NCBI GenBank assembly: GCA_964589575.1
Contig: CAZPSE010000005.1
Location: 1,611-65,610 of the forward strand
Reading direction: 5' to 3'
DNA from: an uncultured Gammaproteobacteria bacterium
Lineage (GTDB): Bacteria; Pseudomonadota; Gammaproteobacteria; QNFE01; CAZPSE01
Length of the DNA: 64,000 nt
Part shown: positions 3,847 to 60,008 of the stretch, piece after piece
How positions within the stretch are numbered: position 1 is the stretch's first letter
Layout of the letters: every line of letters starts with the position of its first letter
Made by a program: the position numbers and the translations under genes
The notes under the pieces: model-generated
Database searches by the model: none
Told to the model about the DNA's origin: nothing
The model's input: only the letters and a program-made list of their open reading frames with translations

Positions 3847-4135
3847 TTAAGGAAGTCCTGATCAACTAATATCTAGTCTACGTGTTGCTAAACTCGCCCT
3901 ACGGGGCTTAGCCCGTTTTTATCTAGCGTCGTTATGCTTTTTCGTGCCATCAAGATACCACAAAAAAGGTTAAGGATGTTAGATGAAACCTGGGCTAAGC
4001 CCTGCAGGGTAATCTTTCAAATGCGCATCTTCTGCGTTGTGTCCCTTATCAATAGAGTGACCATTGACTGCGGAATACGGCTTGCATTTGCACGCTTGAA
4101 AAATTGCAATTATGCGTAGTTAATTAAGGTTTACT
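3847..4135. repeat. MITE-like repeat, copy A of the TTAAGGAAGTCCTGAT(C/T)AAC inverted-repeat family
   Basis: Begins TTAAGGAAGTCCTGATCAACT. The internal ~250 bp is about 85% identical to 40470..40784. It ends with a degraded inverted repeat (AGTTAATTAAGG). The ORF-track hit inside it is not treated as a gene. Confidence 0.7.
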
Positions 4136-4188
4136 TAATCGGGTCTATTTATGTTTTTTCTAAATTTAACTTAATGGGCAGGGTTGTT

Positions 4189-5424
4189 TTACCATGTGGC
4201 TTGTATTTGTTTTATTAGGTTTATTTGGGCTTCGTCTATTTTAATGGGTATTTGGCTTTTATCTTTGCAATTTTTAGCGATGTCGCCAAAGTTAATGTTT
4301 TTTAGCTGTTTGGGTATAGAGTCAAACATGCTTTTTTGAGGATAGTCTGAATATTCGTGACAGGTTCTGCCTCTGGCATCGGCTTGGCATGCTAGGGTGA
4401 ACTGTTCAAAAAGTTCGGGCTGTTTAATCGCATCAAAAGCTTTAATCACTTTTAATATAGATTTGGCCTTTAACTCGGTTATTTTGTGACAGTGGGTATG
4501 GTATTGGGCGGTTTTAACTGCAAACTTTTTGTATTTACTGGGTATTTTTAAGCGTTCACAAAGTATTTTTATTTCATCCATTCCGCGTTGTTCATGCTTT
4601 TTATGGCTGGGCAGTATCGCTTTGGGTGTAGTGCCTTTGCCCAAGTCGTGGCACAATGCGCCAAAACGCGTTATTGGGTTGTTTGTTTCCCATGCGCAAT
4701 GTTGTAATACCAACATGGTATGTATGCCGCAATCTATTTCTGGGTGCCATTTAAACGGTTGTGGTACACCAAAAAGGCGGTGTATTTCGGGGAATAATAT
4801 TTTTAATGCGCCCACACTTTTTAGTATCTCAAAAAAAACTTGTGGGTTATCAGTTTTAAGGGCTTTTAGGGTTTCTTGCCAAACACGTTCTGCCACTAAA
4901 GCGTTCACTTCGCCATTTTGTACCATGGTTTTCATTAGTTTTAGGGTGTCTTTTTGCACTTTAAAACCTAGGTGATACAATTTGGCGGCAAAACGTGCCA
5001 CGCGCAATATCCTTACGGGGTCTTCGCTAAATGCGCCAGATACATGTTTGATTTTTCGGTTTTTTATATCGTCCAAACCACCCAAGGGGTCGACGAAATT
5101 GCCTGTTTTTAGCTCTTGAGCGATGGCATTTATTGTTATGTCTCGGCGTTGTAAATCTTCTTCTAAGGTTACAGACTTTGTAGCGTCGGTAGTAAAGCCT
5201 GTGTAACCTTTGCCTAACTTTTTTTCGGTACGCGCTAGTGCATATTCTTCTTTTGTTTTAGGGTGCAAAAATACAGGAAAGTCTAAACCAACTTGTTGGT
5301 AACCTTGGTTTAATAATTCGTCTGCAGTAGAGCCGACCACTACCCAGTCTTTATCAACAACGTTTAAACCTAACTGTTGGTCGCGGATTGCGCCACCTAC
5401 TAAATATATTTTTTTTGTTTGCAT
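4189..5424 (-). CDS. cca: Multifunctional CCA tRNA nucleotidyltransferase with HD phosphohydrolase domain
   Basis: MQTKKIYLVGGAIRDQQLGL...DKDWVV polymerase-beta head, plus an HD domain (HDLGK). 411 aa versus 412 aa for E. coli Cca. Confidence 0.9.
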   Translation of the reverse strand: MQTKKIYLVGGAIRDQQLGLNVVDKDWVVVGSTADELLNQGYQQVGLDFPVFLHPKTKEEYALARTEKKLGKGYTGFTTDATKSVTLEEDLQRRDITINAIAQELKTGNFVDPLGGLDDIKNRKIKHVSGAFSEDPVRILRVARFAAKLYHLGFKVQKDTLKLMKTMVQNGEVNALVAERVWQETLKALKTDNPQVFFEILKSVGALKILFPEIHRLFGVPQPFKWHPEIDCGIHTMLVLQHCAWETNNPITRFGALCHDLGKGTTPKAILPSHKKHEQRGMDEIKILCERLKIPSKYKKFAVKTAQYHTHCHKITELKAKSILKVIKAFDAIKQPELFEQFTLACQADARGRTCHEYSDYPQKSMFDSIPKQLKNINFGDIAKNCKDKSQIPIKIDEAQINLIKQIQATW

Positions 5425-5498
5425 AAATAATGTTTACCGTTGTTTATATTATAAATGCTCTATGGTGTTTTTACTGTAAAATCTAATTTTCATTAGTT

Positions 5499-6413
5499 TT
5501 GCCATCTTTTTTGTACCAAATGCATGCACCTATAAATAAAAAAGTTATTTTTGCCTACTTAGGTGTGGTTTTAATTTGGTCTACCACGCCTTTAGCAATT
5601 AACTGGAGCGGTCAAGCCGATCATTTTTTGTATGGTGTGTCTTGGCGTATGGTAATTGGTTTACTGTGTTTGTTAATAATTATGCTAATGACTAAAAAAC
5701 GTTTTGTTTTTAATAAACTCAATATTGCTTTGTACTTTTTTTCTGGGCTTACTTTTTATACCTCTATGATGAGCGTATATTACGGCTCGCAGTTTATTAG
5801 CTCTTCTATTGTGGCATTGGTGTTTGCCTTTTCTACTTTTTTAACCGGAATATTTAGCGCAATATGGCTTAAAGAAAAATCTTTTCCACCGCATAAATTA
5901 ATGGGTTTAATTATTGCCATATTGGGTTTAGTTAGCTTGTTATATAAAACATTAGACAACAGCACGGCATTGTTAATAGGTGTGTTTTGGGTAATGGTGT
6001 CTAATGTTATTTATTCGTTTAGTGGTGTAATGTTTAAAAAGTACACGGTCAATGTTCAGCTAGATGCCATTGTGCTTACCGCCGGCAGTTTAGTGGTTGC
6101 GGTCGTTTTATACGGCATAACCTTATGGTGGGTAGAGGGGCGTTTATTACCCATTAACTACAGCAATAAAATGTTGTGGTCTACGCTGTATTTAGGTGTG
6201 GCAGGTTCGGCTTTGGGCTATGTATTATTTATGTATATATTAAAAAATTTACGCGCTAATCAGGTTTCTTTATTGGCTTTAGTTACGCCTGTTTTTGCTA
6301 TGGCTTTAGGTGCAGCATTAAATAATGAGGTGATTAGTATTAACCAATATATTGGTACCGGTTTAGTATTACTAGGTTTGGTGTTTTATAATTTTAAAAG
6401 GGTCGCAACGTAA
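5499..6413 (+). CDS. EamA/DMT-family permease, about 10 TM helices
   Basis: Highly hydrophobic 304-aa protein with two internally repeated halves, typical of EamA. Its stop overlaps the next start by 1 nt. Confidence 0.65.
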   Translation: MPSFLYQMHAPINKKVIFAYLGVVLIWSTTPLAINWSGQADHFLYGVSWRMVIGLLCLLIIMLMTKKRFVFNKLNIALYFFSGLTFYTSMMSVYYGSQFISSSIVALVFAFSTFLTGIFSAIWLKEKSFPPHKLMGLIIAILGLVSLLYKTLDNSTALLIGVFWVMVSNVIYSFSGVMFKKYTVNVQLDAIVLTAGSLVVAVVLYGITLWWVEGRLLPINYSNKMLWSTLYLGVAGSALGYVLFMYILKNLRANQVSLLALVTPVFAMALGAALNNEVISINQYIGTGLVLLGLVFYNFKRVAT

Positions 6414-8206
6414 TGCAACACATGGCAAGTTATACCGATAAACCCAAAAACAGAGACAACGATTGGGCCAATATTAGGCGCATGGTAACGTATGTTTGGC
6501 ATTACAAAGGTAGAACCATTTTTGCTTTACTTGTTTTAATAATAAGCAAAATGGCCATGGTGGGCGTGCCATTAGTATTAAAAGAAATTATAGACTACTT
6601 AGATGCCGCCAAAGAACATGCCGCCGTATTGCCCGTTGCGCTATTACTAACTTACGCGGTGTTAAAAGTATCGGGTTCTTTATTTAATGAATTGCGTGAT
6701 TTAATTTTTGCCAAAGTCCGCTATCAAGCGATGATTCAACTATCGAGCGAAGTATTTCATCATTTGCATCAACTCGCACTTCGTTATCATTTAGATCGCA
6801 ATACAGGCGCAGTATCGCGAGACTTAGAACGCGGCACGCAAAGCATTAGCTCTATTCTTAACTATTTAATATTTAACATTGTGCCAACCATTGCAGAATT
6901 TATATTGGTCGCCACCATATTAATAATGCAATACAACGCCGACTTTGCCGTAGTTACGTTTGTTACCGTTATCATATATGTTGCCTACACATTAGGTTTT
7001 ACCAATTGGCGCATGCACTACCGGCACGAAATGAACGCGTTAGACTCTAAAGCCAATGGCCGTGCAATAGACAGCTTAATTAACTACGAAACCGTAAAAT
7101 ATTTTAATAATGAACACTTTGAACAACAGCGCTATCAAGAAACATTAGGCGGTTGGCAAGTGGCGGCGGTTAAAAGCCAAACGGCCATGTCGATGCTTAA
7201 CTTTGGACAAGGTTTAATTATTGCTTTGGGCGTGTCGTACGTTATGTACCTGTCTACCCAAGGGGTAATAAATGGAGAATTAAGTTTAGGTGACCTAGTA
7301 CTAATAAACACCATGATGTTGCAATTATTTATGCCATTGGGTTTTTTAGGCGTGGTTTATCGCGCCCTAAAATACGCCATGGCAGACATGGACTTAGTAT
7401 TTAAATTGCTAGATCACGATGTAGAAATTAAAGATAAAAACGGTGCCAAAAAAATAAAAATAACCAACGCAAACATACAATTTAACAACGTGCAATTTGG
7501 CTACCATAAAGATAGAAACATATTAAATGGCATTAGTTTTGAAATTAAACACGGGCAAAAAGTAGCCGTAGTTGGCCCATCGGGGGCAGGTAAGTCTACC
7601 TTGTCGCGTTTGTTATTTCGGTTTTACGACGTGCAAAATGGCAACATAAGCATAGACGGGCAAAACATAAAAAGCGTCACCCAGCAATCGTTACGCCAAG
7701 CAATAGGCATAGTCCCGCAAGATACCGTACTGTTTAACGAAAGCATTTTATACAATATACAATACGCCAACCCCAATGCGACAGAAAGTGACGTGTATAA
7801 AGCTGCAAAAATGGCCGACATACATAACTTTATAAGTGACTTGCCCGAGGGTTACAAAACCATAGTAGGCGAGCGCGGATTAAAACTGTCTGGCGGAGAA
7901 AAGCAACGTGTCGCCATCGCGCGGGTACTACTAAAGCAACCAAAAATATTAATTTTTGATGAGGCCACATCCAGTTTAGATTCACGTTCAGAGGCGGCGA
8001 TTTTATCATCACTAAGTGAACTATCAGACAAGCGAAGCACACTAGTAATAGCGCATAGGCTGTCAACCATTATAGATGCGGATAATATTATAGTGCTGGA
8101 AAAAGGAAGTATTGTAGAGCAGGGCACACACAAAGCACTGTTAAAACAAAAAGGTTTGTATAAATATTTATGGGATTTACAGCAAGAGGAGCAAGATGAA
8201 AAATAG
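6413..8206 (+). CDS. ABC exporter, fused permease and ATPase (ABCB/Atm1/MsbA-like)
   Basis: N-terminal 6-TM domain. Walker A GPSGAGKST, ABC signature LSGGEKQRVAIARVLL, Walker B ILIFDEATSSLD. 597 aa. Confidence 0.85.
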   Translation: MQHMASYTDKPKNRDNDWANIRRMVTYVWHYKGRTIFALLVLIISKMAMVGVPLVLKEIIDYLDAAKEHAAVLPVALLLTYAVLKVSGSLFNELRDLIFAKVRYQAMIQLSSEVFHHLHQLALRYHLDRNTGAVSRDLERGTQSISSILNYLIFNIVPTIAEFILVATILIMQYNADFAVVTFVTVIIYVAYTLGFTNWRMHYRHEMNALDSKANGRAIDSLINYETVKYFNNEHFEQQRYQETLGGWQVAAVKSQTAMSMLNFGQGLIIALGVSYVMYLSTQGVINGELSLGDLVLINTMMLQLFMPLGFLGVVYRALKYAMADMDLVFKLLDHDVEIKDKNGAKKIKITNANIQFNNVQFGYHKDRNILNGISFEIKHGQKVAVVGPSGAGKSTLSRLLFRFYDVQNGNISIDGQNIKSVTQQSLRQAIGIVPQDTVLFNESILYNIQYANPNATESDVYKAAKMADIHNFISDLPEGYKTIVGERGLKLSGGEKQRVAIARVLLKQPKILIFDEATSSLDSRSEAAILSSLSELSDKRSTLVIAHRLSTIIDADNIIVLEKGSIVEQGTHKALLKQKGLYKYLWDLQQEEQDEK

Positions 8207-8301
8207 GCTGTTTTTGTCGACCCCTTTATTTTCTCTATCAGTTATTGAAATATTATTTTCAACGTATTACACTGTCTTACAATATTAATTAAGAGGTATT
8301 T

Positions 8302-8870: not shown

Positions 8871-8943
8871 ATTTAGGCTAGCTTTATCGTAATTTAGTAC
8901 GTCTTTAGGTAGGTAAAGCCTTATTAAAAGATTACTTTTTAGG

Positions 8944-9005
8944 GCAAGGGGTCTGCACGCATAACGCTCCTGCTATTCTGTGTACCTACTTCCTGTAGGC
9001 AACGA
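8944..9005. repeat. REP-like palindromic element (AAGGGGTC-GCACGCATAA-GCTCC...GTAGGCAAC family), copy 1
   Basis: CAAGGGGTCTGCACGCATAACGCTCCTGCTATTCTGTGTACCTACTTCCTGTAGGCAACG. About 85% identical to 15331..15390 and 45825..45895. Contains the CCTAC...GTAGG hairpin. Lies between convergent gene ends. Confidence 0.6.
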
Positions 9006-9006
9006 T

Positions 9007-9996
9007 TTAGCCCTGTTTTTTACTGCGCTGTGTTTCTTTAAAGGCTTTCTTTTGTTCTCTATGTTTTTTACTTTCGCTTAACACCTCACCACCAATATGG
9101 TGCTCGCCACGGGCTTTAGCAATTTGTACTTGCTTTTCGCGTTGCATAAAACGCGCGCGTTGCGCGTTGGTGGTTTTGTCGTAGCAGGTTGGACAGCTTA
9201 CGCCTTTTTGGTATTTGGGGTTTTGTTTATCCGCTTCGGTTATGGGTAGTCGGCAGGCGTAACATTGGTCGTAACTGCCTTTTTTTAAATTGTGGTTTAC
9301 GCTTACGCGGTTATCAAATACAAAACATTCGCCTTGCCATAAAGACTTTTCTTGTTCGACCTTTTCTAGGTATTTTAATATGCCACCTTTTAAGTGGTAC
9401 ACCTCGGTAAAACCTTGTTCTTTTAAATACGCGGTGGACTTTTCGCACCTTATGCCACCGGTACAAAACATGGCAACTTTTTTATTTTTATTAGGGTTTA
9501 AATTGTCTTTAACGTATTGCGGAAACTGCCTAAAGGTTTCGGTTTTTGGGTCGATGGCATTTTTAAATGTGCCAATAGACGTTTCGTAAGCGTTACGGGT
9601 ATCTATTACGGTTACTTCGGGGTCGGATATTAAATCGTTCCAATCTTCGGGGTTTACGTATGTGCCTACCACTTGGTTGGGGTCGATGCCTTCTATACCC
9701 ATGGTGACAATTTCTTTTTTTAGTTTTACACGGGTGCGGTAAAACGGCATGCTGTCATCGTAAGAGCATTTGTAACGTAAGTCGGCAAGGCGCGTGTCGG
9801 ACTGTAGCCAGTTTAATAAAATAGTTTGAGATGCTTGGCTAGATGCGACCGTACCGTTTATGCCTTCTTTAGCTAATAGCAATGTGCCTTTAATGTCGTG
9901 TTTTAACATTAGCTCTAGCAACGGCTGACGGATTTCTTTGTAGTTGTCTAATATGACAAAGTGGTACAAAGCAGTAATGGCTACTGGGTTGGACAT
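9007..9996 (-). CDS. trhO: Rhodanese-domain tRNA uridine(34) hydroxylase (YceA/UPF0176)
   Basis: Rhodanese active-site loop [14 protein letters not shown]. The overall N-terminal region matches E. coli YceA. Lys-rich C-terminal tail. Confidence 0.85.
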
Positions 9997-10073
9997 AGCA
10001 GTTTCCCTGTGTTCGGCGAGCTGAAACGTAAATTCAGTGCGTGTTTGGAAGCCCAGTTAATTAGGACTTCCTT
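9985..10073. repeat. Partial MITE-like element ending in the AGTTAATTAGGACTTCCTTAA inverted repeat
   Basis: A terminal 21-mer matching the family inverted repeat sits at about 10053..10073. Only one end is recognisable. Confidence 0.45.
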
Positions 10074-10225
10074 AAAAAAACGGTATTATAACTATTTTTG
10101 GTTTATTAAGGAGATTCTGATTAACTGGAATTTTCAAACGATTAGCGTTAAGCATTGCTCGTTTTGGTGTTTTTTCGTCGACCCCTTGTGTAAAATACGG
10201 GTTAATAAAAAATGAATATAAAACT

Positions 10226-15330: not shown

Positions 15331-15390
15331 TAAGGGGTCGCACGCATAATGCTCCAAGCAATTTTGTGTACCTACATTCATGTAGGCAAC
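15331..15390. repeat. REP-like palindromic element, copy 2
   Basis: AAGGGGTCGCACGCATAATGCTCCAAGCAATTTTGTGTACCTACATTCATGTAGGCAACAG. Confidence 0.6.
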
Positions 15391-24039: not shown

Positions 24040-24212
24040 CGCCCTAATACTGATAAATAGCGAATACAAAAATGCCACAATCTTTTAATGCACCTAGCAA
24101 TACTAAAAATCGTTTCATCACCAATAAAGTGACAACGATGCTTTTAGTTTGCCTATGCACATCAAATGATTAGCGCCTTTTTACCTTTTTATATGAGGTT
24201 AGGGTAGTCATT
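24040..24212. repeat. About 175-bp inverted-repeat-bounded element, copy 1 (upstream of yhdP)
   Basis: About 85% identical to 28030..28207. Shared core AAAATGCCACAATC.TTTAATGCACCTAG..A.ACTAAAAATCGT.TCATCACCAATAA.GTGAC.ACGA...CCTATGCACATCAAATGATTA. Its inverted repeats are degraded (CGCCCTAATACTG...TATATGAGGTTAGGG). Confidence 0.6.
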
Positions 24213-27200: not shown

Positions 27201-28039
27201 ATTGGACTTTATCCAATACACCTTCTTTACAACTTAAAATTAAAAAATTAATTGTGTCGAAAATTGCGATAGATAAAGTAGAGTTAACGACAATAAGTAA
27301 ACAAAATACAGTTAAAATAGAGAAATTGGGCTTTAAAAACCCCTACATGACTTTTTCATCGTCTGGTCGTTGGTGGGGTAAAAGTGATGATGAAACACAA
27401 ACTAATTTACAATTTTTAATTAAAACCGATAACTTAGGAAAGGCGTTATCTCGTTTTAATTTTAATGAAAGTTTTGAAGCGGGGAAAGGTAGTTTTTCGG
27501 GTGATTTTACTTGGCCAGGGTCGTTAACCAATGCCTCACTTGCGGACCTTAATGGGTATTTCTCACTTGATTTAAAAGAAGGAACCATGAAAGAAGTTGA
27601 CCCAGGTGTGGGACGTGTTTTTGGCTTGTTTAGTTTGCAAGCATTACCTAAAAGGTTGTTTTTAGATTTTAGTGATGTGGTTGGATCGGGTTTAGAATAT
27701 AAGACAATAAAAGGCAATTTTAAAATTACCAACGGTAATGCTTTTACTCACGATTTAAAAATGGACAGCACCATTGGTGAAGTTTACGTAACAGGAAGAA
27801 CAGGTTTGGCAGATAAAGATTATGATCAAAAATTAAAATTTATCCCATCGTTTTTTACTAACTTACCCTTAGTAGGGGTGTTAGCCGCAGGGCCACAGGT
27901 GGGGCTAACCGTTTTGATAGTAGAAGCCTTTTTGAAAAGCATAGGTGCCGATATTAGCAAAGCCAGCGCAATTAATTATAGACTAACAGGAACTTGGGAT
28001 AACTCGAAAATGGAAGTGGATACTCGAGTTAATAACTGA
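24215..28039 (+). CDS. yhdP: AsmA-like inner-membrane protein YhdP
   Basis: 1274 aa with an N-terminal TM anchor and a long beta-rich body. 1266 aa in E. coli, where it also lies immediately downstream of rng. Confidence 0.8.
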   Translation: MIFSFIKKATVVCIYCAVGVLFVFAVIISLARSVNPIAQQLSGKFTNALESALSLPVKLESFEISWSESNPIIWFNQVTLGENDNKLKAKHVVATVDLKSTLFAQKIVFKKITLDGVILRVEYNSEQYDQQKTANIKRKAIQVTQVKNEKNTPKAIISWLSSIDELQLKNSTIELLHNGKETVFTGINLDIANIKERHKLKLQIVFPQKIGNKLTLILDANGDPHSSNKWGGQIYIEAENLNLTWLAEEFTEIPVAFLSGKSSFKIWSHWNQGKVQRIHVSSLNKNISLKVNDHSIKADQLNTEFWLSYINDEWLLKSNNIYYRQGDTTWDSGNVLLSYVDKNQTVKLDGFIEQLDIALIRKKLRKLNFDDQSIPQINGKLDNVLFYYYKNKLAPNYGFYTKIKQLDIIKSPNNIGISNFSGKLLIKNNVGLLQSTIKNGVFNSNGLFRKTISIKQLNGLIKFEVNKNWRLSSQSLYIETPNLKAHTEFDIYKKADEEADVNVNAKIINVKSEDIQHYLPVQIMSTDLVNWLDKSIKKGKVNETYVLMRGNMKDFPFDKSRGVFDIGFDTQNVKLDYEYNWPILKNIDANVRFYANKMTIKGHQATLNKVQFKHLMVRIDDLNKPYLKIKAQGIGTLSNYKDFIKNSPLQSKLGAFVDQFDFYGKAQLKLNALFDLDGNDLPKIKGNLSLKKARLDSTTIKLQLKNIMGDITFTENEVSAKNIKLKLLDENWVLKATTLKNTKNEAIATRVNLTGLLDPKKVVNQYLDFSNLKTSGKSIWQVKINIPITDELPKPVVSLNFKSDLKGVAINYPYPLNKISKNKSTFNLNLKLPNVDNNVYVNASLKNVIKIKQRWQAGEKWLLKRSNTIISNAKKAKKTIRFSTAIHQLKVDVKGANVDDWVLALEDKNKSETPAISLHSLFDKVNISLQKSIYNKKPIAVFKANIQEKKSAFHYKITSDFISGQITVPKNKNNKLNINLDLFNADYLATDKQNKDWTLSNTPSLQLKIKKLIVSKIAIDKVELTTISKQNTVKIEKLGFKNPYMTFSSSGRWWGKSDDETQTNLQFLIKTDNLGKALSRFNFNESFEAGKGSFSGDFTWPGSLTNASLADLNGYFSLDLKEGTMKEVDPGVGRVFGLFSLQALPKRLFLDFSDVVGSGLEYKTIKGNFKITNGNAFTHDLKMDSTIGEVYVTGRTGLADKDYDQKLKFIPSFFTNLPLVGVLAAGPQVGLTVLIVEAFLKSIGADISKASAINYRLTGTWDNSKMEVDTRVNN

Positions 28040-28207
28040 GCCCTAATCCTCATATAGAAAACATAAAAATGCCACAATCCTTTAATGCACCTAGTAAAAC
28101 TAAAAATCGTCTCATCACCAATAAGGTGACCACGACGTTTTTAATTTCCCTATGCACATCAAATGATTACACCCGTTTCACATTTCTATATGAGGATTAG
28201 GGCTAAG
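28030..28207. repeat. About 175-bp inverted-repeat-bounded element, copy 2 (downstream of yhdP)
   Basis: Perfect 18-bp terminal inverted repeats GCCCTAATCCTCATATAG ... CTATATGAGGATTAGGGC. Interior is homologous to 24040..24212. Confidence 0.65.
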
Positions 28208-28214
28208 TTATTAG

Positions 28215-32751: not shown

Positions 32752-32764
32752 TAATTAAAACTAG

Positions 32765-32927
32765 TTAAGGAATATCTGAACAAGTATCATAAATTCTGGC
32801 AACGCCAAAATTCCAATATCGAGGCATCGTTTTGAAGCCAGGGTTGTTCCCTGTCGAAAAACGATAACGAAGAGATTGGTGTTTTGGCGTTGCCAAACTT
32901 GACGTTAGTTAATCAGGACTTCCTTAA
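32765..32927. repeat. MITE-like repeat, copy C (163 bp, both inverted repeats present)
   Basis: Left end TTAAGGAATATCTGAAC (degenerate). Right end AGTTAATCAGGACTTCCTTAA. Interior is the reverse complement of about 40040..40136 (CTGGCAACGCCAAA...CGTTTTGAAGCC...CCTGTCGAAAAACGA). Confidence 0.6.
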
Positions 32928-34994: not shown

Positions 34995-35456
34995 ATGAAC
35001 GTATTATCAAAACTGTTTCTTGTCAGCACGTCAGTCTTTCCTTCAATTGTTTTAGCTGTTTCTATGCAGTTAACGACTTTAGATGGACAGACGAAAACAT
35101 TAGATGAATATAAAGGTAAGTGGGTGGTGGTTAACTATTGGGCTACATGGTGCCCACCATGTATAGAAGAGATTCCAGAGTTGAATAGTTTTCATGAGAA
35201 GAATGCTGATAGAGCCGTTATGTTAGGCCTCAACCAAGAAGATATTAGCCGTGAGGATTTGAATTCTTTTATTGAGGAATATTTTATGGAATACCCACAA
35301 TTTAAAGTATCACCAAGAGAACGCTCTCCTTTAGGTTCTGTACCTGGCTTACCCACAACATTTGTAATAACACCAAACGGCGAGTTAGTGGCTAAACAGT
35401 CGGGGCCAGTTTCAGAAAAAATGTTAACAGATTTTATTGATAATTGGGGTAAGTAA
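34995..35456 (+). CDS. TlpA/ResA-like periplasmic thiol:disulfide oxidoreductase
   Basis: Signal peptide. WCPPC active site in VVNYWATWCPPCIEEIPEL. 153 aa. Confidence 0.75.
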   Translation: MNVLSKLFLVSTSVFPSIVLAVSMQLTTLDGQTKTLDEYKGKWVVVNYWATWCPPCIEEIPELNSFHEKNADRAVMLGLNQEDISREDLNSFIEEYFMEYPQFKVSPRERSPLGSVPGLPTTFVITPNGELVAKQSGPVSEKMLTDFIDNWGK

Positions 35457-35460
35457 TAAA

Positions 35461-35997
35461 ATGAATAAGAGACGTTTATTAATAGTTGCTTTAGCTTTTG
35501 TAATGGCGATGAGTTTTGCCAATGCAAAAGAAAATAGAGACCCTTATACGTTTTTTTTTGATGAAACATTCGGGGACTTAACCGAAGAAATTGAAAATGC
35601 TAAAGACGCAAATAAAAAAGCTATTTTTATTTTTTTTGAAATGGATGAGTGCCCATTTTGCCATCGGATGAAAACCACAATATTAAATCAAAAGGCGGTA
35701 CAAGATTATTTTAAAGAACATTTTTTAATGCTGCCTATGGATATTGAGGGCGATTTAGAAGTTGTTAATTTTAAAGGAGAAACAAAAACACAAAAGGCAT
35801 TTTCATCAAAAGAAAATAGAGTTAGGGCAACGCCTGTTTTAGCTTTTTTTGATTTAACGGGAAAGCGAATTTTTCGTTATACTGGTGCCACTACCTCACC
35901 TGAAGAGTTTATATGGATGGGGCAATACATAGCAGAAGGGCATTATAAAAAAATGCGCTTTAATAAATATAAAAGAATGAAGAAAAAACAAGGTTAA
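35461..35997 (+). CDS. Secreted thioredoxin-fold protein with a CPFC motif
   Basis: Signal peptide MNKRRLLIVALAFVMAMSFANA. IFIFFEMDECPFCHRMK active site. The ATG lies 5 nt after the TlpA-like stop. Confidence 0.6.
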   Translation: MNKRRLLIVALAFVMAMSFANAKENRDPYTFFFDETFGDLTEEIENAKDANKKAIFIFFEMDECPFCHRMKTTILNQKAVQDYFKEHFLMLPMDIEGDLEVVNFKGETKTQKAFSSKENRVRATPVLAFFDLTGKRIFRYTGATTSPEEFIWMGQYIAEGHYKKMRFNKYKRMKKKQG

Positions 35998-36005
35998 AAT
36001 ACTAA

Positions 36006-37283
36006 ATGAGATTGAAGCGTTTTTTTTTACTGATTGCTTTTTTCTTTTCGTCACTCACTCATTCAGAAGAGTTGCTGTCTTTACAAGATGCGGTAACGAC
36101 AGCATTACAAAATAATTATGCAATAAAAGCTTTAAATTACAACCAGCAAGAGCTAGTCGTTAATCGTCTATTAAGTGAAGACTCCAACAGCTCAAAACTC
36201 AACCTTAAATCTAACTTACAATGGGTTAAACCATCGGCACTTTATACTTTTTCTCAAGACATTAGCGGTTCTGTATCTTTAGTTTATTCTAAAAATCTTT
36301 ATGACTTTGGTCGAACAACGTCTAAGCTAAAAGAGTTTGACCAACAAAAAATATCCATTAAATTAAGCAATAAACTATTAAAACAAAAACAAGTATTAAA
36401 GGTAATAACCGATTTTTTTAATGTACTAATAAGTGATTTAAACTTTAATGTTTGGAATGAAGGGATGTCTATTGCTTTTGTAAGACAAGACAGGGCGGTC
36501 GATAGACTGCAATTAAAAGAAATTACAGAGTTAGACTTATTAGCGCTACAGCGCACTTTTCAATCTGCGTTAATTAAACGAACGGAAGCGGAAAATAAAC
36601 AACGGCTAATGCGCTCTCAATTGTCCAAGTCAATGGGGAGTAATAACTTACCATCAAACCTTGATGACATGGCTAAAGTATTGTGGGAAAAAGAAATACC
36701 TGAGTACGATGACTTAGTGATTGGTGCAATTAAACATAATGGTGAAATAAAGTTATTACTTTCAAATATTAAAGCCAAACAACAACAACGCAAGACAATA
36801 GCAAAACAAACCTCACCTAATTTAACTTTAGAAGCAGATATTAATGCTTATAGCCTAGAAACACCGTTTAGTCACCCAGCGACTGTTACATTACAATTTG
36901 ATTACCCATTGTATTCGGGTTCTGTGCCATCGTTAAAAAGACAACAGATTGATATTGTTTTAGAACGGTTAAAAAACAATTTGTATGCGAAACAACAGCA
37001 AATAAAACATCAATTATTATCGGTATGGCAGCAACTGAATTTATTATCCGTTAAAAAGCAACATTCAGATGTGAATAGTGATTATCAAGATTATTATTTA
37101 GACCGCAGTAGGGCTTTGTACGAGCTGGAAATGCAAAATGACCTAGGTAATGCTATGACAGAGTTTTCAGCAGCTATTTTAGAAAAAGCGACCATTAAAT
37201 ATCAGTGGGTTTTAGCTTGGGAAGAGCTTAGTATAATAACCAACCAACCAAAATATTCGATATTAGGATTACGTTATGAATAA
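36006..37283 (+). CDS. TolC-family outer-membrane efflux protein
   Basis: Signal peptide. SLQDAVTTALQNNYAIKAL matches the OEP N-terminal helix. The two-repeat architecture and 425-aa length are typical of TolC/OprM-type proteins. Confidence 0.75.
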   Translation: MRLKRFFLLIAFFFSSLTHSEELLSLQDAVTTALQNNYAIKALNYNQQELVVNRLLSEDSNSSKLNLKSNLQWVKPSALYTFSQDISGSVSLVYSKNLYDFGRTTSKLKEFDQQKISIKLSNKLLKQKQVLKVITDFFNVLISDLNFNVWNEGMSIAFVRQDRAVDRLQLKEITELDLLALQRTFQSALIKRTEAENKQRLMRSQLSKSMGSNNLPSNLDDMAKVLWEKEIPEYDDLVIGAIKHNGEIKLLLSNIKAKQQQRKTIAKQTSPNLTLEADINAYSLETPFSHPATVTLQFDYPLYSGSVPSLKRQQIDIVLERLKNNLYAKQQQIKHQLLSVWQQLNLLSVKKQHSDVNSDYQDYYLDRSRALYELEMQNDLGNAMTEFSAAILEKATIKYQWVLAWEELSIITNQPKYSILGLRYE

Positions 37284-38013
37284 AAAGTGGTATTTATTTG
37301 TTTTTAGTATTTTAATCTTACTGGTTTCGACAAATGGCTTGACAGAACAAAAAAATACCTTTTTAGAATACAGTGACGTTAGGCAGTTAACGTTTAAATT
37401 TGAAGGATTAATTATTGAAACCTTGGTAAGTAACGGGGAGTTAGTTACTAAAAACCAATCGCTAGCAAAATTAGATAATAAACTGATCAAACTTGAAATA
37501 AAAAAAGCCAAGGCAGAATTAGCATCGACCAATGCGACATATAAAGAAGTACAACAAGAACACGAAAGAGCTTTGGAGTTATTTGACCGAGATATATTGT
37601 CGCAGGTAGATATGGATAAAAGCCATAATTTACTGGATAAAAATGAAGCTTTGTACAATATTAAAGGTGAAAAGCTAAATATTTTAGAAGCCAAACTTAC
37701 TTACTACCAATTAACCGCGCCTTATGATGGTATTGTTTTATTTAATCAATTTCACAATGGTCGATTAATAAAAAACACTATTCAACCACATATAACAATA
37801 AAATTAGCCACACAAAATAAAATACAATTTGTAATTAACAAGAGTAATTTAAATGCAGAAAAAACAATTAACGTAAAAGTGAAAAATAAAAATTATAAAG
37901 CACATCTATTGGGCTTTACTTTTAAAGAGGCTAAATTTCATTATTTGTATCAAATACAAAAACCAAATGCTTATTTATTAGTGGGTAATAAAGTAAAGGT
38001 AATAGGAAAATAA
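37276..38013 (+). CDS. Short HlyD-like periplasmic adaptor (membrane fusion protein)
   Basis: N-terminal TM anchor. A lipoyl half (GLIIETLVSNGELVTKNQSLAKLD), a coiled-coil hairpin, and a second lipoyl half (LTAPYDGIVL). 245 aa. Overlaps the TolC-like gene by 8 nt. Confidence 0.7.
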   Translation: MNKKWYLFVFSILILLVSTNGLTEQKNTFLEYSDVRQLTFKFEGLIIETLVSNGELVTKNQSLAKLDNKLIKLEIKKAKAELASTNATYKEVQQEHERALELFDRDILSQVDMDKSHNLLDKNEALYNIKGEKLNILEAKLTYYQLTAPYDGIVLFNQFHNGRLIKNTIQPHITIKLATQNKIQFVINKSNLNAEKTINVKVKNKNYKAHLLGFTFKEAKFHYLYQIQKPNAYLLVGNKVKVIGK

Positions 38014-38014
38014 T

Positions 38015-39790
38015 ATGACGGTCATAACCTCCCAATATTCTGGCAAATTAAATTTAATAGACGTGTTAGATGATTTACTTGAAGAAAAAATCACCAGTGC
38101 CGACAACGTTAAGTTATTAAAAGCATTACTCGAAGATAAATCCGCTGGTGATTTACAACATCCGTTTATAGAAATAGAAGGCCGTAATTTAGAAAGTAAT
38201 GATGGTGAAGCACTAACTGCAGATTTATTAACTACTTGGCTTGCTTTAAAAAGTGGTTTTGTACAGTTTGATATTGACCCTTTAAAAATTGACTTGCAAG
38301 CTGTTACTTCGGTTATCCCTCAAAATTATGCTAAGCGTTTTAATATTTTAGCGGTAGAAAACAGCAAAAATAAAGTTATTTTTGCCACAGCAGAACCTTT
38401 TGATACATCTTGGGAAACGGAAATTGGCCATGTAATAAATAATAAAAAAATTGAAAAAGTATTGGTAAACCCCGTATTGATAAAGCAATATTTAGAAGAT
38501 TTTTATACGCTTTCTAAGTCCATGGTTGGCGCAGAAGGTAACCATAAAGATACCAATAATTTGCAAAATTTAGAGCAAATGGTAGAAATTGGTAAACGTG
38601 GTAAATCTGATGCGAATGATTCACATGTGGTGGATATTGTTGATTGGTTATTACAATATGCTTTTGAACAGCGCGCATCAGACATTCATATAGAACCTCG
38701 CCGAGAGCAAGGCATTATTCGTTTTAGAATTGATGGTGTGTTACATCAAGTGTACGACATGCCAGCACCGGTTATGAAAGCGGTAACGAGCCGAATTAAG
38801 ATATTAGGACGGATGGACGTTGCAGAAAAAAGGCGACCACAAGACGGGCGATTAAAAACGCGTACAGAAGACGGGTTAGAGGTGGAATTAAGGTTGTCGA
38901 CCATGCCAACAACTTTTGGAGAAAAGCTGGTCATGCGTATTTTTAACCCAGAAACCTTATTGAAAACACTAAATGGTTTGGGTTTTTCTCGTAAAGAAGC
39001 AACGTTGTGGGAAAAAATGACCAATGAGGCACATGGCATTGTTTTATTAACAGGGCCAACAGGGTCGGGTAAAACAACCACCTTGTACTCCACTTTAAAA
39101 CGTTTAGCAAAGCCAGAAATTAACGTTTGCACAGTGGAAGACCCAATAGAATTAGTTGAACCATTATTTAATCAAATGCAGGTTCACCCCAAAATAGACT
39201 TAACCTTTGCGTCGGGTATTCGTACTTTATTACGTCAAGACCCCGATATTATTATGATTGGTGAAATGCGCGATTATGAGACCTCTGAAATGGCCATACA
39301 AGCGGCCTTAACAGGACATTTAGTAATAAGCACCTTGCACACTAATGACGCGCCATCAGCAATTACACGGCTTATAGAGCTGGGTATTGCGCCTTATTTA
39401 ATCAATTCATCCCTAGTTGGTGTGGTAGCACAGCGTTTAATACGCACTTTATGCCCAAGCTGTAAAGAAAAGATACCGTGCGACAAACAACAGTGGGAAA
39501 GTTTAGTTCACCCGTGGAAGTCAAAAGCACCGGAAAATGTATATATTGCAAAAGGCTGTAAAGAATGCCGACAATCTGGCTATAAAGGAAGGATTGGAAT
39601 ATACGAAATAATGGAATTTACCGACGAGATGAAAACCGCCGTACATGAAAATGCTAGTATCATTGATTTGAGAAAAAAAGCCGTCGCAAATGGCTTAAAA
39701 CCATTAAGGCTTTCTGGTGCACAAAAAGTAGCCACAGGTGTAACTACGTTTGAAGAAGTAATGAAAGTTAGCCCACAGCCGAGCAATTAA
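38015..39790 (+). CDS. GspE/PilB-family secretion ATPase (type II/IV secretion NTPase)
   Basis: T2SSE_N-like N-domain. Walker A LLTGPTGSGKTTT, Asp box, Walker B DIIMIGEMRD, His box. Tetracysteine zinc motif CPSC...CKEC. 591 aa. Starts 2 nt after the adaptor gene stop. Confidence 0.9.
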   Translation: MTVITSQYSGKLNLIDVLDDLLEEKITSADNVKLLKALLEDKSAGDLQHPFIEIEGRNLESNDGEALTADLLTTWLALKSGFVQFDIDPLKIDLQAVTSVIPQNYAKRFNILAVENSKNKVIFATAEPFDTSWETEIGHVINNKKIEKVLVNPVLIKQYLEDFYTLSKSMVGAEGNHKDTNNLQNLEQMVEIGKRGKSDANDSHVVDIVDWLLQYAFEQRASDIHIEPRREQGIIRFRIDGVLHQVYDMPAPVMKAVTSRIKILGRMDVAEKRRPQDGRLKTRTEDGLEVELRLSTMPTTFGEKLVMRIFNPETLLKTLNGLGFSRKEATLWEKMTNEAHGIVLLTGPTGSGKTTTLYSTLKRLAKPEINVCTVEDPIELVEPLFNQMQVHPKIDLTFASGIRTLLRQDPDIIMIGEMRDYETSEMAIQAALTGHLVISTLHTNDAPSAITRLIELGIAPYLINSSLVGVVAQRLIRTLCPSCKEKIPCDKQQWESLVHPWKSKAPENVYIAKGCKECRQSGYKGRIGIYEIMEFTDEMKTAVHENASIIDLRKKAVANGLKPLRLSGAQKVATGVTTFEEVMKVSPQPSN

Positions 39791-39802
39791 ACTAATTGAA
39801 AA

Positions 39803-39870
39803 CAAGGGGTTATCCACGCTCCTGCAATTCTGTGTAGTTACATCCCAGTAGGAAACGCTAGAATGGGGTT
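39803..39870. repeat. Divergent REP-like element
   Basis: CAAGGGGTTATCCACGCTCCTGCAATTCTGTGTAGTTACATCCCAGTAGGAAACGC sits directly after the gspE-like stop and is related to the 8944, 15331 and 45825 copies. Confidence 0.45.
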
Positions 39871-39944
39871 TTAATAAAGCTCTGATCAAGCCTCGTAATA
39901 TTCTGCGAGTTTATAAGGGTGCAGATGTTGGGGATGTTCCGAAA

Positions 39945-40154
39945 TTAAGGGCTAAATTAATAATAAGACTATTGGTGAAGTGTGTAACAACAACGTAAGT
40001 GTTAATTTGTAATCTCGTCCTACGGGGCTTAGCGAAAATTGTAGTATCTTCGTTCTCGTTTTTCGACAGGAAATAATCATGGCTTTAAAACGATGCTTCG
40101 ATATTGAAATTTGGCGTTGCCAGAATTTATGATACCTTTTCAGGTTTTACTTAA
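39945..40154. repeat. MITE-like repeat, copy D (mosaic of the A-left and C modules)
   Basis: CTCGTCCTACGGGGCTTAGC matches copy A (CTCGCCCTACGGGGCTTAGC). The 40040..40136 stretch is the reverse complement of copy C. Both terminal inverted repeats are degenerate. Confidence 0.5.
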
Positions 40155-40235
40155 ATAGGAAAAAAGACTAAATTAGTTGTTCTTGTTATCTAAAAGAGGT
40201 TAAAAGCAATGCCTGTTCCTATTGAAACAGGCACT

Positions 40236-40439
40236 TTAAGTGGTGTAAAACGTACTATCGTAAACATTCATTATAGATTCTAACTCGCTAAGCACGCTTG
40301 CATGAAGCGTTTGATCTAATTTACTAATTTCATCAAAAGATTGGGATTGTTTTAATTTTTCAATACATAAATAAACATGTTTGCAGCCTTTTTCACAAAT
40401 TTTGGTCACAATAATGTCGATAGTGAAATCTTTTGTCAT
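40236..40439 (-). CDS. Hypothetical 67-aa Cys-containing protein between two MITE copies
   Basis: MTKDFTIDIIVTKICEKGCKHVYLCIEK... Only ORF in the 1-kb repeat-filled gap. Coding status uncertain. Confidence 0.3.
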   Translation of the reverse strand: MTKDFTIDIIVTKICEKGCKHVYLCIEKLKQSQSFDEISKLDQTLHASVLSELESIMNVYDSTFYTT

Positions 40440-40469: not shown

Positions 40470-40784
40470 TTAAGGAAGTCCTGATTAACTACATACTATC
40501 TGGCAACGCCCAAGTTTTATCTAGCTATGCCTACAAGGATGTAGGTAGTAGGGCAATGCAGGAGCAATTGCCGAGGCTTGCTTTTGCAGTGCCATCTCGA
40601 TACCACAAAAAAGCATAACGACGCTAGATGAAACTTGGCTAAGCCCCGTAGGGCAATCTTTCAAGCGCGCATCTGCTGCGTTGAGTCCCTTATCAATGGA
40701 ATGACCATTGACTGCGGAACACGCCTTGCATCTGCACGCTTGAAAGAGTGCAGATAATGCGTAGTTAATCAGGATTTCCTTAAT
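40470..40784. repeat. MITE-like repeat, copy B (315 bp, near-perfect 21-bp terminal inverted repeats)
   Basis: TTAAGGAAGTCCTGATTAACT ... AGTTAATCAGGATTTCCTTAA. Interior about 85% identical to copy A. Confidence 0.75.
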
Positions 40785-45824: not shown

Positions 45825-45895
45825 TAAGGGGTCGCACGCATAATGCTCCCAGCAACTCTGTGCACCCACGTCCGTGTAGGCAACGAAATAAGCCT
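45825..45895. repeat. REP-like palindromic element, copy 3
   Basis: CTAAGGGGTCGCACGCATAATGCTCCCAGCAACTCTGTGCACCCACGTCCGTGTAGGCAACGAAA. Confidence 0.6.
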
Positions 45896-48333: not shown

Positions 48334-48525
48334 TTATTGGTTATTGTTGGTAGGTGGGTTAATCAGGTCTTCCTTAAATAAACGAATCAACTTTTCTACT
48401 TGTTGTGTGCAACAGCCAACCCCCACTGTGGCATAGGTTTTTGCTTTCACTTCTGCAACGGTTATTGCCCCATTAGTAATGGCGTTGATAATTAGCCTTT
48501 TGGGTACTTCGTTACAAACATACAA
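48334..48525 (-). CDS. Possible degenerate BFD-like [2Fe-2S]-binding-domain protein; its C-terminus is encoded by a solo MITE inverted repeat
   Basis: MYVCNEV...AITNGAITVAEVKAKTYATVGVGCC resembles the Bfd C-x-C...G-x-G-C-G-x-C pattern but keeps only 3 Cys. The last about 12 codons lie in GTTAATCAGGTCTTCCTTAA (48359..48378). Confidence 0.3.
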   Translation of the reverse strand: MYVCNEVPKRLIINAITNGAITVAEVKAKTYATVGVGCCTQQVEKLIRLFKEDLINPPTNNNQ

Positions 48526-57200: not shown

Positions 57201-57459
57201 AGGTTATGCGTGTGAACAAATTAATAAAGTAAAAGAAGGCCGACCACACATTGTAGACTTGATTAAAAACGACGATGTTGATTTAATCATTAATACCACC
57301 GAAGGTTCGGCGGCGATTGCCGACTCTTTCGAGATACGACGTGAATCGTTAAATCATAAAATTCCTTATTCCACCACTATTAACGGCGGTAAGGCTATGT
57401 GTATGGCGATGAGTTACTCGCAAGAGTTAAAACCTTATAAATTACAAGATCTTATATGA
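54247..57459 (+). pseudogene. carB: Carbamoyl-phosphate synthase large subunit interrupted by one in-frame TAG at 54877..54879
   Basis: 54247..54879 and 54898..57459 are in the same frame and together are collinear with E. coli CarB (1073 aa). The local sequence reads [16 protein letters not shown] versus the conserved ES(L/V)(I/L)GWKEYEME. No other disruption is seen. Confidence 0.8.
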
Positions 57460-57484
57460 AATATAAAAGACAAACGGAGTTATT

Positions 57485-57964
57485 ATGAGCCAATTAACCC
57501 CCTTAACTTTAGCGGGTGAAGTAAAATTACGTGCCGAATTAAAGCACTTAAAATATACCGTCAGACCAGAAATTGTCGATGCGATAGCAACAGCACGCGC
57601 GCACGGTGATTTAAAAGAAAATGCAGAATATCATGCAGCAAGAGAGCAACAAAGCTTTAACGAAGGCCGCATTAAATTGGTAGAAGGCACGGTTTCAAAC
57701 TCTCAAATTATTGATGTGTCGCAAACCAATGTAGGCGATAAAATTGTTTTTGGTGCAACTGTCACCCTGTTTGATTTATCAACAGAAGAAGAAGTAACCT
57801 ATCAAATAGTGGGTGATATAGAAGCCGATATTAAACAAAAATTAATTTCGGTAAACTCCCCCATTGCAAGGGCAATGATTGGTAAAAGTACCGATGATGA
57901 ATTTGAGTTTAAAGCACCAAATGGTAAAAAAGAATACGAAGTGGTAGCCGTCGTATATAAATAA
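57485..57964 (+). CDS. greA: Transcription elongation factor GreA
   Basis: [16 protein letters not shown] and a C-terminal FKBP-like domain ([14 protein letters not shown]). 159 aa. Confidence 0.95.
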
Positions 57965-57992
57965 TCATTTTTAAATGAAAATAGGGGGCTAA

Positions 57993-58847
57993 ATGGACAA
58001 CAAAAAAGGCACGCTTTATATTGTCGCCACCCCAATTGGTAATTTAGGCGACATGACACACCGCGCTATTGGCGTGTTAAACGCGGTAGATTTAATCGCC
58101 GCAGAAGACACCCGCACCAGCGGTAAGTTGTTGCAACATTTTGATATTAAAACACAATGCATTGCCTACCACGAACATAATGAAAGAAGCAGCAGTGGCA
58201 AGCTAATAGCGTTATTGGCACAAGGCAAAAATATTGCTTTAATTTCTGACGCTGGCACGCCATTAATTAGCGACCCCGGTTACATTTTAGTCGCCCAAGC
58301 CCATCAAGAAAGCATTAAAGTAGAGCCAGTTCCTGGTTCATCGGCGGTTATGGCCGCATTATCAACGGCGGGTTTAGCCACCGATCGGTTTTTATATATT
58401 GGCTTTTTACCCTCTAAAAAATCGGCCAGAGATAAAACCCTAAAAGACTTGCAAGGGGTCGACGCTACGATGGTTTTTTATGAGTCTTGCCATCGTATTG
58501 AAGATTCTATAAAAAGTTTTATTGATGTTTTTGGCGAACAAAGACGTGTTTGTTTTGCCAGAGAAATTACCAAACAGTTTGAAACAATCAAACAGACAGA
58601 TTTTAAAAACCTGCTAGACTTTGTTGCTAATGACGACAACCAAAAACGCGGAGAAATTGTTTTAGTAGTCGAAGGCAAAGTAAAAGTAAAAGATGAAATA
58701 AATTATCAAAATTTAGATAATCTTTTAAAACCATTACTGCAATATCTGCCACCAACATCGGCGGCTAAAGTGGCTAGCCAGTATTTGCAGTTAAAAAAGA
58801 AAGTGTGTTATCAACGCGCAATAGAGCTGTCTCAAAACTCAATTTAA
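57993..58847 (+). CDS. rsmI: 16S rRNA (cytidine1402-2'-O)-methyltransferase
   Basis: LYIVATPIGNLGDMTHRAIGVLNAVDLIAAEDTR matches the E. coli RsmI N-terminus. 284 aa. Confidence 0.9.
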   Translation: MDNKKGTLYIVATPIGNLGDMTHRAIGVLNAVDLIAAEDTRTSGKLLQHFDIKTQCIAYHEHNERSSSGKLIALLAQGKNIALISDAGTPLISDPGYILVAQAHQESIKVEPVPGSSAVMAALSTAGLATDRFLYIGFLPSKKSARDKTLKDLQGVDATMVFYESCHRIEDSIKSFIDVFGEQRRVCFAREITKQFETIKQTDFKNLLDFVANDDNQKRGEIVLVVEGKVKVKDEINYQNLDNLLKPLLQYLPPTSAAKVASQYLQLKKKVCYQRAIELSQNSI

Positions 58848-58860
58848 ACGAATCTAGGAA

Positions 58861-59811
58861 ATGTATATGAACAAATTTTTAATTATTGCACTGCTTCTTA
58901 GTAGTTCTTGGCAGGTATTTTCTCACTCAAAAATAGTAGAGGCTTACCCCGTTAGCGAAATTACTCCCCGTGTATTTGTTCTTCATGGGCCAAAAGGCTT
59001 ACCGAGTGTGGCTAATAAAGGTTTTATGAATAATCCTGCTTTTATTATCGGTGATAAAGGTGTGATAGTTGTTGACCCAGGTTCTAGCGTTTATATAGGC
59101 CGTATGTTAATTAAAGCCATACAAAAAAGAAGCAACTTACCTGTTACCCATATATTTAACACCCATGTGCATGGCGACCATTGGTTAGCAAACCACGCTT
59201 TTGTAGATAAATGGCCCGGTGTTACCATTTATGGTCATCCAAATAAAATTGCTATGGCACATGACGGAGAGGCAGAATCATGGCTTGCCACAATGGACAC
59301 CCTAACTGAAGGTTTAACAAAAGGCACCAAAGCATACCCTGCCAACAGCAAAAGTAATGATGGTGATGTGTACAAAATACACGGCTTAACTTTTAAAATA
59401 CATGCGCCAGACAATGCACATTCTAAAACCGACATTATGGTGGAGTTGGTAGAAGACTCGGTGGTATTTTTAGGCGACAACGTTTTTTATCAACGCATTG
59501 GTCGGTTAGACGATGGAACATTTAAAGGCAATATTGAGGCGTGTAATGTGGCACTAGCAATTAACGCCACACATTATGTACCGGGTCATGGCCCTACAGG
59601 TGGCAGTATTGTGGTTGAGTCGTATAAACGCTTTTTAGAAACCATTTTTAACTTAACGGCTAAGCATTATGAAGACGATAAAGAAGATTATGAAATTAAA
59701 CCCCTAATAGACAAGCAACTAACCGAGTTTAAAAACTGGGACGGTTACGACGGTGCATTGGGCAAAATGATCAGCTTGGCTATTTTAGAAATTGATGCGA
59801 GTGAAGAGTAA
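58861..59811 (+). CDS. Secreted metallo-beta-lactamase-fold hydrolase
   Basis: Signal peptide. HVHGDHW (HxHxDH) motif with downstream His/Asp ligands. 316 aa. Confidence 0.75.
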   Translation: MYMNKFLIIALLLSSSWQVFSHSKIVEAYPVSEITPRVFVLHGPKGLPSVANKGFMNNPAFIIGDKGVIVVDPGSSVYIGRMLIKAIQKRSNLPVTHIFNTHVHGDHWLANHAFVDKWPGVTIYGHPNKIAMAHDGEAESWLATMDTLTEGLTKGTKAYPANSKSNDGDVYKIHGLTFKIHAPDNAHSKTDIMVELVEDSVVFLGDNVFYQRIGRLDDGTFKGNIEACNVALAINATHYVPGHGPTGGSIVVESYKRFLETIFNLTAKHYEDDKEDYEIKPLIDKQLTEFKNWDGYDGALGKMISLAILEIDASEE

Positions 59812-59814
59812 AGG

Positions 59815-60008
59815 GTTAATCAGGACTTCCTTGAGGAAGAACTGATTAACTGGGTTAGAATTGCGCTGAGAAAAAAGTGTCGCTATTTTTCGCGAAGTGA
59901 GTCGTAATAGTCGCTCTATTGCAACGAACTTCGGGGAAAATAGCGACACTTTTAGCCAGTGCAAAATAAGCTCAGTTGATCAGTTCTTCCTCAAGGAAAC
60001 CCTGAACT
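59815..60008. repeat. MITE-like repeat, copy E (palindromic ends CCTTGAGGAAGAACTGAT(T/C)AAC)
   Basis: Left end GTTAATCAGGACTTCCTTGAGGAAGAACTGATTAAC forms a nested hairpin. Right end GTTGATCAGTTCTTCCTCAAGGAAACCCTGAAC. The right end supplies the last codons and stop of glcF. Confidence 0.65.

Follow-up and report, generated by a model that had tools for sequence, protein, structure and literature searches.

The 64-kb stretch of DNA analysed here (the window), from the genome of an uncultured gammaproteobacterium, carries a family of short dispersed repeats that we interpret, with a probability of about 0.75, as a non-autonomous, mosaic family of bacterial MITEs (transposable elements of miniature size with inverted repeats). 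This is also how an initial annotation of the window had described them, and the description holds because the elements are short, have inverted ends, occur in multiple copies at non-orthologous places and are missing from the equivalent sites of relatives at two loci. They are gene-less: no credible coding capacity was found in the elements, and the ORFs (open reading frames) inside copy B (Table 1) are short, spurious ones only. Three of the characters by which MITEs are recognised, namely small size without a transposase, common inverted ends and dispersed copies with presence/absence differences, are found in this set of sequences. The family is a new one, of a known kind of bacterial repeat.

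The ends define the family. Matches to the 20-mer TTAAGGAAGTCCTGATTAAC were counted on both strands of the window with at most three mismatches; nine were found against a mean of 0.01 in dinucleotide-preserving shuffles, none of 100 of which reached nine, which bears out the initial claim of several copies with a common inverted repeat of about 20 bp. Every family member carries the 16-bp terminal inverted repeat GGAAGTCCTGATTAAC inside TTAA, such that all three sequence types start with TTAAGG and finish with CCTTAA. A looser search for ends added a 53-bp mini-hairpin that was absent from the initial annotation, and the window holds at least eight family sites. Apart from solo ends and this one mini-hairpin, these are discrete elements of 163–315 bp bounded by TTAAGGAAGTCCTGATTAAC. 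Profile searches and alignments define the three types. Type 1 (copies A and B; 265–315 bp) has an end stem and two long internal hairpins, type 2 (copy C and part of copy D) measures 163 bp, and type 3 (copy E; 164–165 bp) is one 65-pair hairpin.

Alignment supports the module shuffling that was originally described. A resembles B at 85% identity over 208 bp, while D combines an A-left-like module with a right part derived from C in reverse complement (D 40047–40158 against C left 32761–32873; 87% over 113 bp). The interior of E is unrelated to the rest, only its termini being common to the other copies. The greater length of B relative to A is explained by a nested insertion of about 55 bp (~40521–40575) of an unrelated two-hairpin micro-repeat.

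Copies also occur outside the window. In a collection of one genome per species, a scan with the end sequence returned nine stretches in a second metagenome-assembled genome (MAG), the uncultured gammaproteobacterium CAYZQE01, together with six single matches in unrelated taxa that are chance-like. These MAG loci have no genes in common with the window, and in their 66 kb a profile search identified at least 12 type-1 and at least seven type-3 copies, which adjoin housekeeping genes such as lpxB, dksA and one for ferritin. Scanning metagenomes yielded one further type-3 copy, on contig L019 beside hisD, and the same end sequence gave two single matches in viral contigs. Plasmids and phages gave no blastn match to the elements, and a literature text search no match to the end sequence. 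Copy counts cover the window, the 66 kb of fetched MAG loci and one metagenome contig. An assembly artefact was rejected, the family being present in several independent assemblies. One MAG locus, L002, holds a dense patch (6180–7520) with two full type-1 copies and truncated type-1 and type-3 pieces; it includes a 54-bp internally deleted derivative (7093–7146) analogous to the mini-hairpin of the window, and a small signal-peptide-like ORF lies between its elements (6935–7070).

Empty sites in relatives at two loci indicate discrete insertions, as the initial annotation had supposed, rather than segments of a larger conserved element. The window has 179 bp between glcF and the neighbouring MBL-fold gene, where relatives have 17 bp (L027; GlcF 78% identical) or 42 bp (L028; GlcF 72% identical), and the difference is accounted for wholly by copy E and its flanking end remnants. 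Similarly, pmbA and the DUF2069 gene lie 2 nt apart in L035 (PmbA 81%), whereas the 163-bp copy C separates them in the window. In a further relative, L036 (PmbA 69%; GCA_015487625.1), the overlap of these two convergent genes consists of TTAA alone (positions 1909–1912) and contains both stop codons; this would be the kind of site that the family targets, with neither stop destroyed. At the locus of D and B, synteny with MshE relatives ends directly after mshE. The short-read contig L001 (Logan SRR9822617), which carries mshE, is 100% identical to window positions 35015–39927 and has its end 18 bp short of copy D, which is consistent with repeats breaking short-read assemblies. At the glcF locus, the native 3' end GTTCAGGG extends the outer half-palindrome beside E (window 59995–60008 against L027 2853–2860), which may be coincidence or may reflect an insertion preference for end-like sequence.

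The tetranucleotide TTAA marks the boundary of nearly every copy. An end table was compiled for 20 full-length copies and one 54-bp deletion derivative. Among the full-length copies, 36 of 40 ends have TTAA, the exceptions being both ends of E, the right end in L007 and the right end of L003-2, and no direct repeat beyond the terminal TTAA was found in any of these 20. The initial annotation had seen TA as well as TTAA flanks; TA did not hold up, and the conserved flank is TTAA. Roughly 14–16 ends adjoin, across a single common TTAA, either a further end or what remains of one (5–10 bp), as in the tandem type-3 pair of L014, the type-3/type-1 pairs of L005 and L016 and both sides of E in the window; TTAATTAA was never found among the abutting ends. 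Such junctions include a perfect or near-perfect 36-bp palindrome, GTTAATCAGGAYTTCC TTAA GGAARTCCTGATTAAC, at L008 121–156, L015 12–47 and window 59815–59850. In two cases the terminal TTAA supplies the stop codon of a neighbouring gene, that of DUF2069 at the right end of C and that of dksA in L016. Because nearly all ends carry TTAA and neighbouring copies have a single TTAA in common, TTAA is probably a target duplicated on insertion rather than a part of the element.

A simple model of propagation may be proposed on this basis. Insertion at TTAA would duplicate the target, and a TAA stop codon on which an element lands would thereby stay intact. New copies would often land on the TTAA flanking a resident copy, giving rise to single-TTAA arrays and to nested or chimeric copies, and copies would persist where they are least harmful, above all between convergent genes. 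For neighbouring genes the effects would go no further than a few added codons at the C-terminus and long hairpins in read-through transcripts. Most sites of the window do lie between convergent genes (fumC/GIY-YIG, pmbA/DUF2069, RRM protein/Bfd-like and MBL-fold/glcF), which fits survival where insertion harms least.

The parent of the family would be a DDE transposase of the IS5 group, with 16-bp ends starting GGAAG and a 4-bp Py-T-A-Pu duplication. This group is the most likely source, although we hold the assignment tentatively, at somewhat less than even odds. It is suggested by the resemblance of the ends over 10–12 of 16 positions and by the compatibility of TTAA with Py-T-A-Pu. The 16-bp ends of E. 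coli IS5A are GGAAGGTGCGAAYAAG, to which the family end GGAAGTCCTGATTAAC is identical at 10 of 16 positions and the left end of C, GGAATATCTGAACAAG, at 12 of 16; by a binomial estimate, identity at 12 or more of 16 positions is expected by chance at about 4e-5 per comparison. The target duplication of IS5 is Py-T-A-Pu, TTAA included (PMC5493358).

Table 1. Family copies, solo ends and remnants in the window
Feature	Position	Strand	Description
Mini-hairpin	2780–2832		53 bp; two degenerate ends with 4 mismatches each, 13-nt loop; between convergent fumC and GIY-YIG gene
Copy A, type 1	3847–4138	+	292 bp; left end 1 mismatch, right end degenerate (5 mismatches); nhmmer E=4e-57
Solo right-type end	10056–10075	-	1 mismatch; divergent region between UPF0176/rhodanese gene and yaeQ
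Solo left-type end	10106–10125	+	3 mismatches; 30 bp from solo end 10056–10075
Copy C, type 2	32765–32927		163 bp; one hairpin, arms of 58 nt; flanked by convergent pmbA and DUF2069
Copy D, degenerate chimera	39945–40154		Decayed ends; C-like right part and A-left-like piece
Copy B, type 1	40470–40783	+	314 bp; best-kept ends (0 and 1 mismatch); profile E=1e-70
Solo end	48358–48377	-	Within 3' part of Bfd-like ORF, convergent with RRM-protein gene
Outer solo end	59815–59834	-	Abuts copy E; TTGA tetranucleotide in common with copy E
Copy E, type 3	59831–59994	+	164 bp; 65-pair hairpin; ends TTGA/TCAA; profile E=3e-45
End remnant	59995–60002		GGAAA, 5 bp (59995–59999), then first bases of native CCCTGAAC

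The boundaries in Table 1 refine those first assigned. The coordinates of C and D stand, A ends at 4138 rather than 4135 and B at 40783 rather than 40784, and the solo repeat near 48359 is real and had been placed one nucleotide off. What had been called a partial copy at about 9985–10073 is read here as two solo ends in opposite orientation. An element is indeed present at the glcF locus, where the single interval 59815–60008 given for E resolves into an inner element, an outer solo end and a short remnant. Copy A has a minus-strand gene on either side, one CCA-adding enzyme/PcnB-like and the other YceI-like, and copy E sits between the convergent MBL-fold gene and glcF.

Several copies alter the ends of genes. 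The glcF ORF overlaps the interval originally given for E by 18 nt, and E was credited with the last five codons and the stop. The element does provide a new tail, of which only F-P-stop (about three codons) is new; GTTCAGGG is native and is present in L027. This tail is read from the reverse complement of TCAA (59991–59994) together with the remnant GGAAA, and the C-terminus of GlcF is CSSGFP, compared with CSG or WSE in relatives. The claim that the solo repeat supplies the C-terminal part of the small Bfd-like protein (ORF 48334–48525, minus strand) is upheld: it encodes residues 50–56 of 63 (FKEDLIN), beyond the Fer2_BFD domain, which spans residues 4–47. In the GIY-YIG ORF (2795–3133, minus strand) the stop and the last 12 or so codons fall within the mini-hairpin. 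MITEs typically overlap genes over a short C-terminal stretch in this way, as do the QMITEs of Coxiella (PMC5896051). D and B flank a 67-aa ORF, as first described, and this ORF encodes a real, conserved small protein. The ORF (40236–40439, minus strand) has 31 homologues of 62–96 aa at E values up to 1e-3, the best being 59% identical, and no Pfam match.

The micro-repeat nested in B recurs independently of the family. It has the form AAGGGGTCGCACGCATAATGCTCC...CCTACATnCnTGTAGGCAAC, is about 57 bp long with two hairpins, and is found in the window at 3105–3167 (minus strand), 8945–9004, 15331–15390 and 45825–45888, in part at 39823–39857, and elsewhere at L002 7262–7312, in L008 and in L011. 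A related piece of about 50 bp lies inside type-1 copies of both genomes, where the 315-bp copies of the MAG are filled and the 265-bp copies empty; this suggests that the micro-repeat is a tiny element with mobility of its own. A second MITE-like family, unrelated to the first, is represented at 24041–24204 and 28030–28213 by copies of about 175–185 bp with 31-bp terminal inverted repeats TAATAACTGAGCCCTAATCCTCATATAGAAA. These two copies are 84% identical over 165 bp and lie in the same orientation on either side of the 1274-aa yhdP gene. The short motif AAGGGGTCGAC (extended form GCAAGGGGTCGACG) has 11 exact occurrences in the window on both strands, against 0.01 expected (1322, 5084, 8216, 10177, 21626, 29775, 47070, 52916, 58453, 60730 and 62805), about half of them within ORFs, and a further one at L027 2122; it was not found in the 66 kb of MAG CAYZQE01. 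In glcF the motif encodes the conserved peptide SVDPL and is kept at the same position in the 78% relative. It could be a motif of the DNA-uptake-signal kind, or the ~57-bp repeat could have been built up around it.

Type-3 copies are conserved as hairpins and are so on one strand. Of the 65 predicted pairs, 24 have changes on both sides, and 96.9% of cells are paired. Shuffled controls pair at 84.8%, with none of 500 reaching the observed value, and sliding the partner reduces pairing to 36–46%. The forward strand is 14–32 kcal/mol more stable than its complement in all eight of eight copies, G·U exceeds A·C by 53 cells to 2 and by 15 columns to 2 (p=0.002), and the apical stem CGTAATAG-N5-CTATTGCG is invariant. 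Type 1 folds with a conserved loop, GTGYCATCNNGATACCAC, and its strand bias is weak. Long RNA-type stem-loops and compensatory changes have been described for bacterial MITEs such as bcr1 (PMC3184786). Orientation follows neither flanking genes, with type-3 copies lying 5', 3' or antisense, nor local GC skew (type 1, 9 against 4; type 3, 4 against 4), which argues against a replication-strand or host-transcript rule. Across the window no match to Rfam 15 reached the gathering score, and at E values up to 1 the element regions gave chance-level matches only. Promoter and terminator scans of A, D–B and E returned counts within shuffled expectation; the suggestion that the elements act as terminators or mobile promoters gains no excess from these simple scans and stays speculative.

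Such a fold could mean that the elements are primarily structured RNAs, either small RNA genes or cis-acting hairpins that serve as RNase III substrates, stabilisers or attenuators, and that their dispersal is secondary. Selection on the transcript would then maintain the hairpins, and the inverted ends would be no more than the stem base. The two-sided changes of type 3, its preference for G·U over A·C, the consistently more stable forward strand and invariant apical stem, and the type-1 hairpins conserved around their loop all fit this idea, and compensatory changes are documented in the transcribed MITE bcr1 (PMC3184786). We nonetheless consider it improbable as the primary explanation: it leaves the TTAA ends, single-TTAA arrays, truncated copies, solo ends and empty sites unexplained, the elements have no Rfam match and no conserved promoter or terminator, and type-3 orientation is independent of the direction of flanking genes. 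An RNA role is in any case compatible with a MITE and does not exclude one. A related proposal, which we regard as unlikely but a little more tenable, is that the elements are no passive IS5-type MITEs and that propagation or function depends on a hairpin formed by one strand, as RNA or single-stranded DNA, and recognised at its conserved apex and at the TTAA-centred end palindrome; the common ends and the strand-specific, covarying hairpins could be read in this way. Were this true, the family would represent either a mobile element guided by its hairpin and directed at its own ends, or an RNA for processing or regulation that was domesticated and dispersed by transposition.

Mobility could also have a different enzymatic basis. 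An HUH/Y1 transposase, derived from IS200/IS605 or REP/RAYT-like, might move the elements as single-stranded DNA hairpins inserted beside TTAA without duplication, which would account for the strand-specific hairpin constraint and for a tetranucleotide that is the same at both ends and common to tandem copies, as if recreated by the element. Against this, IS200/IS605 elements lack terminal inverted repeats and have separate subterminal hairpins, whereas in this family a single inverted repeat makes up the entire element; copies abut in both relative orientations (in L005, type 3 in plus and type 1 in minus orientation), their orientation does not track GC skew, a REP-like GTAG motif is lacking, and neither RAYT nor TnpA turned up in any locus. 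This makes an HUH/Y1 mechanism very improbable. The 36-bp TTAA-centred palindrome at its three locations, together with internal segments that occur in both orientations relative to their flanks, might instead suggest the site of a site-specific recombinase, with the elements as invertible or excisable segments. Most copies, however, have single ends beside unrelated flanks, and they are dispersed among housekeeping genes in three genomes without an adjacent recombinase gene, and the empty sites of relatives lack such a palindrome, so that we give this explanation almost no weight. Integron attC sites or cassette-array repeats were considered and rejected: such sites each follow a cassette ORF in a same-strand array next to intI, whereas the family has its copies dispersed between housekeeping genes in every orientation, and the AAC/GTT boxes 13 nt inside the ends match RYYYAAC...GTTRRRY at only 6 of 7 positions.

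Several observations weigh against the interpretation as transposase-mobilised MITEs. The single-strand constraint on type 3 and its invariant apex are not required by a transposase that binds duplex DNA. In tblastn with the E. coli IS5 query, neither the window nor any fetched locus gave an IS5-type transposase, nor do any two ends lie 0.7–2.5 kb apart as in a full insertion sequence. With respect to target duplication, the intergenic DNA of the glcF and pmbA relatives that have empty sites does not align because of its divergence, and TTAA was not found at either empty glcF site (L027, L028). Within its own genome, moreover, sampling is limited to the window. The initial remark that no transposase is present agrees with these searches of the window and with the finding of no transposase domain in the ORFs flanking the elements. 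An autonomous partner with the same ends was likewise not found in the window, the nine MAG loci, the metagenome and viral matches, plasmids or phages. Many accepted MITE families have no known partner either.

As MITEs, the elements explain long intergenic gaps and the odd C-terminal tails of GlcF, the Bfd-like protein and the GIY-YIG protein in a poorly sampled gammaproteobacterial lineage, and probably also contig breaks in short-read assemblies; through insertion polymorphism they provide strain markers. It illustrates cleanly, in nature, how several unrelated interiors can be served by one pair of transposon ends, and equally an apparent TTAA insertion that spares TAA stops and an apparent preference for sites beside resident copies. 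Two features go beyond the routine: type 3 is constrained as a single strand, and several small repeat families are nested in one another within the lineage.

Comparison with known systems places the family closest to established bacterial MITEs. Like the Correia elements (CREE/NEMIS) of Neisseria, ERIC/RU-1 of enterobacteria, bcr1 of Bacillus cereus and QMITE1/QMITE2 of Coxiella burnetii, its members fall within 50–400 bp, have no transposase, possess terminal inverted repeats, occur as many dispersed and mostly intergenic copies, form very stable long hairpins and overlap gene 3' ends with the addition of a few codons (PMC3184786, PMC5896051). It differs from all four groups in having no sequence similarity to them, to judge from the literature text search for the end sequence and from the lack of Rfam, plasmid and phage matches, and in a strict TTAA flank, compared with TA for Correia and ERIC, 5 bp for bcr1 and a variable 2–11 nt for the QMITEs. 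Several unrelated interiors on one end pair, and the strong tendency to abut across a single TTAA, further set it apart. Homology with the Correia elements through the common motif AATCAGGAC was rejected, as the motif presumably points the other way with respect to the element end. IS5 of E. coli resembles the family in its 16-bp ends, which start GGAAG and finish with a GAAYAAG-like sequence; it is 1,195 bp long and not hairpin-shaped, the family has no transposase, and the resemblance of the ends is partial. The clusters of repetitive extragenic palindromes (REPs) known as bacterial interspersed mosaic elements (BIMEs) of enterobacteria are likewise mosaics of a few short modules with clustering and repeats within repeats, as for the piece of about 55 bp in type 1, whereas REPs are 20–40-bp palindromes without terminal inverted repeats of 16–20 bp and are linked to REP-associated tyrosine transposases (RAYTs), neither of which applies to the family. 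In their mosaic structure, clustering and nesting, the nested small dispersed repeats of cyanobacteria are probably also alike.

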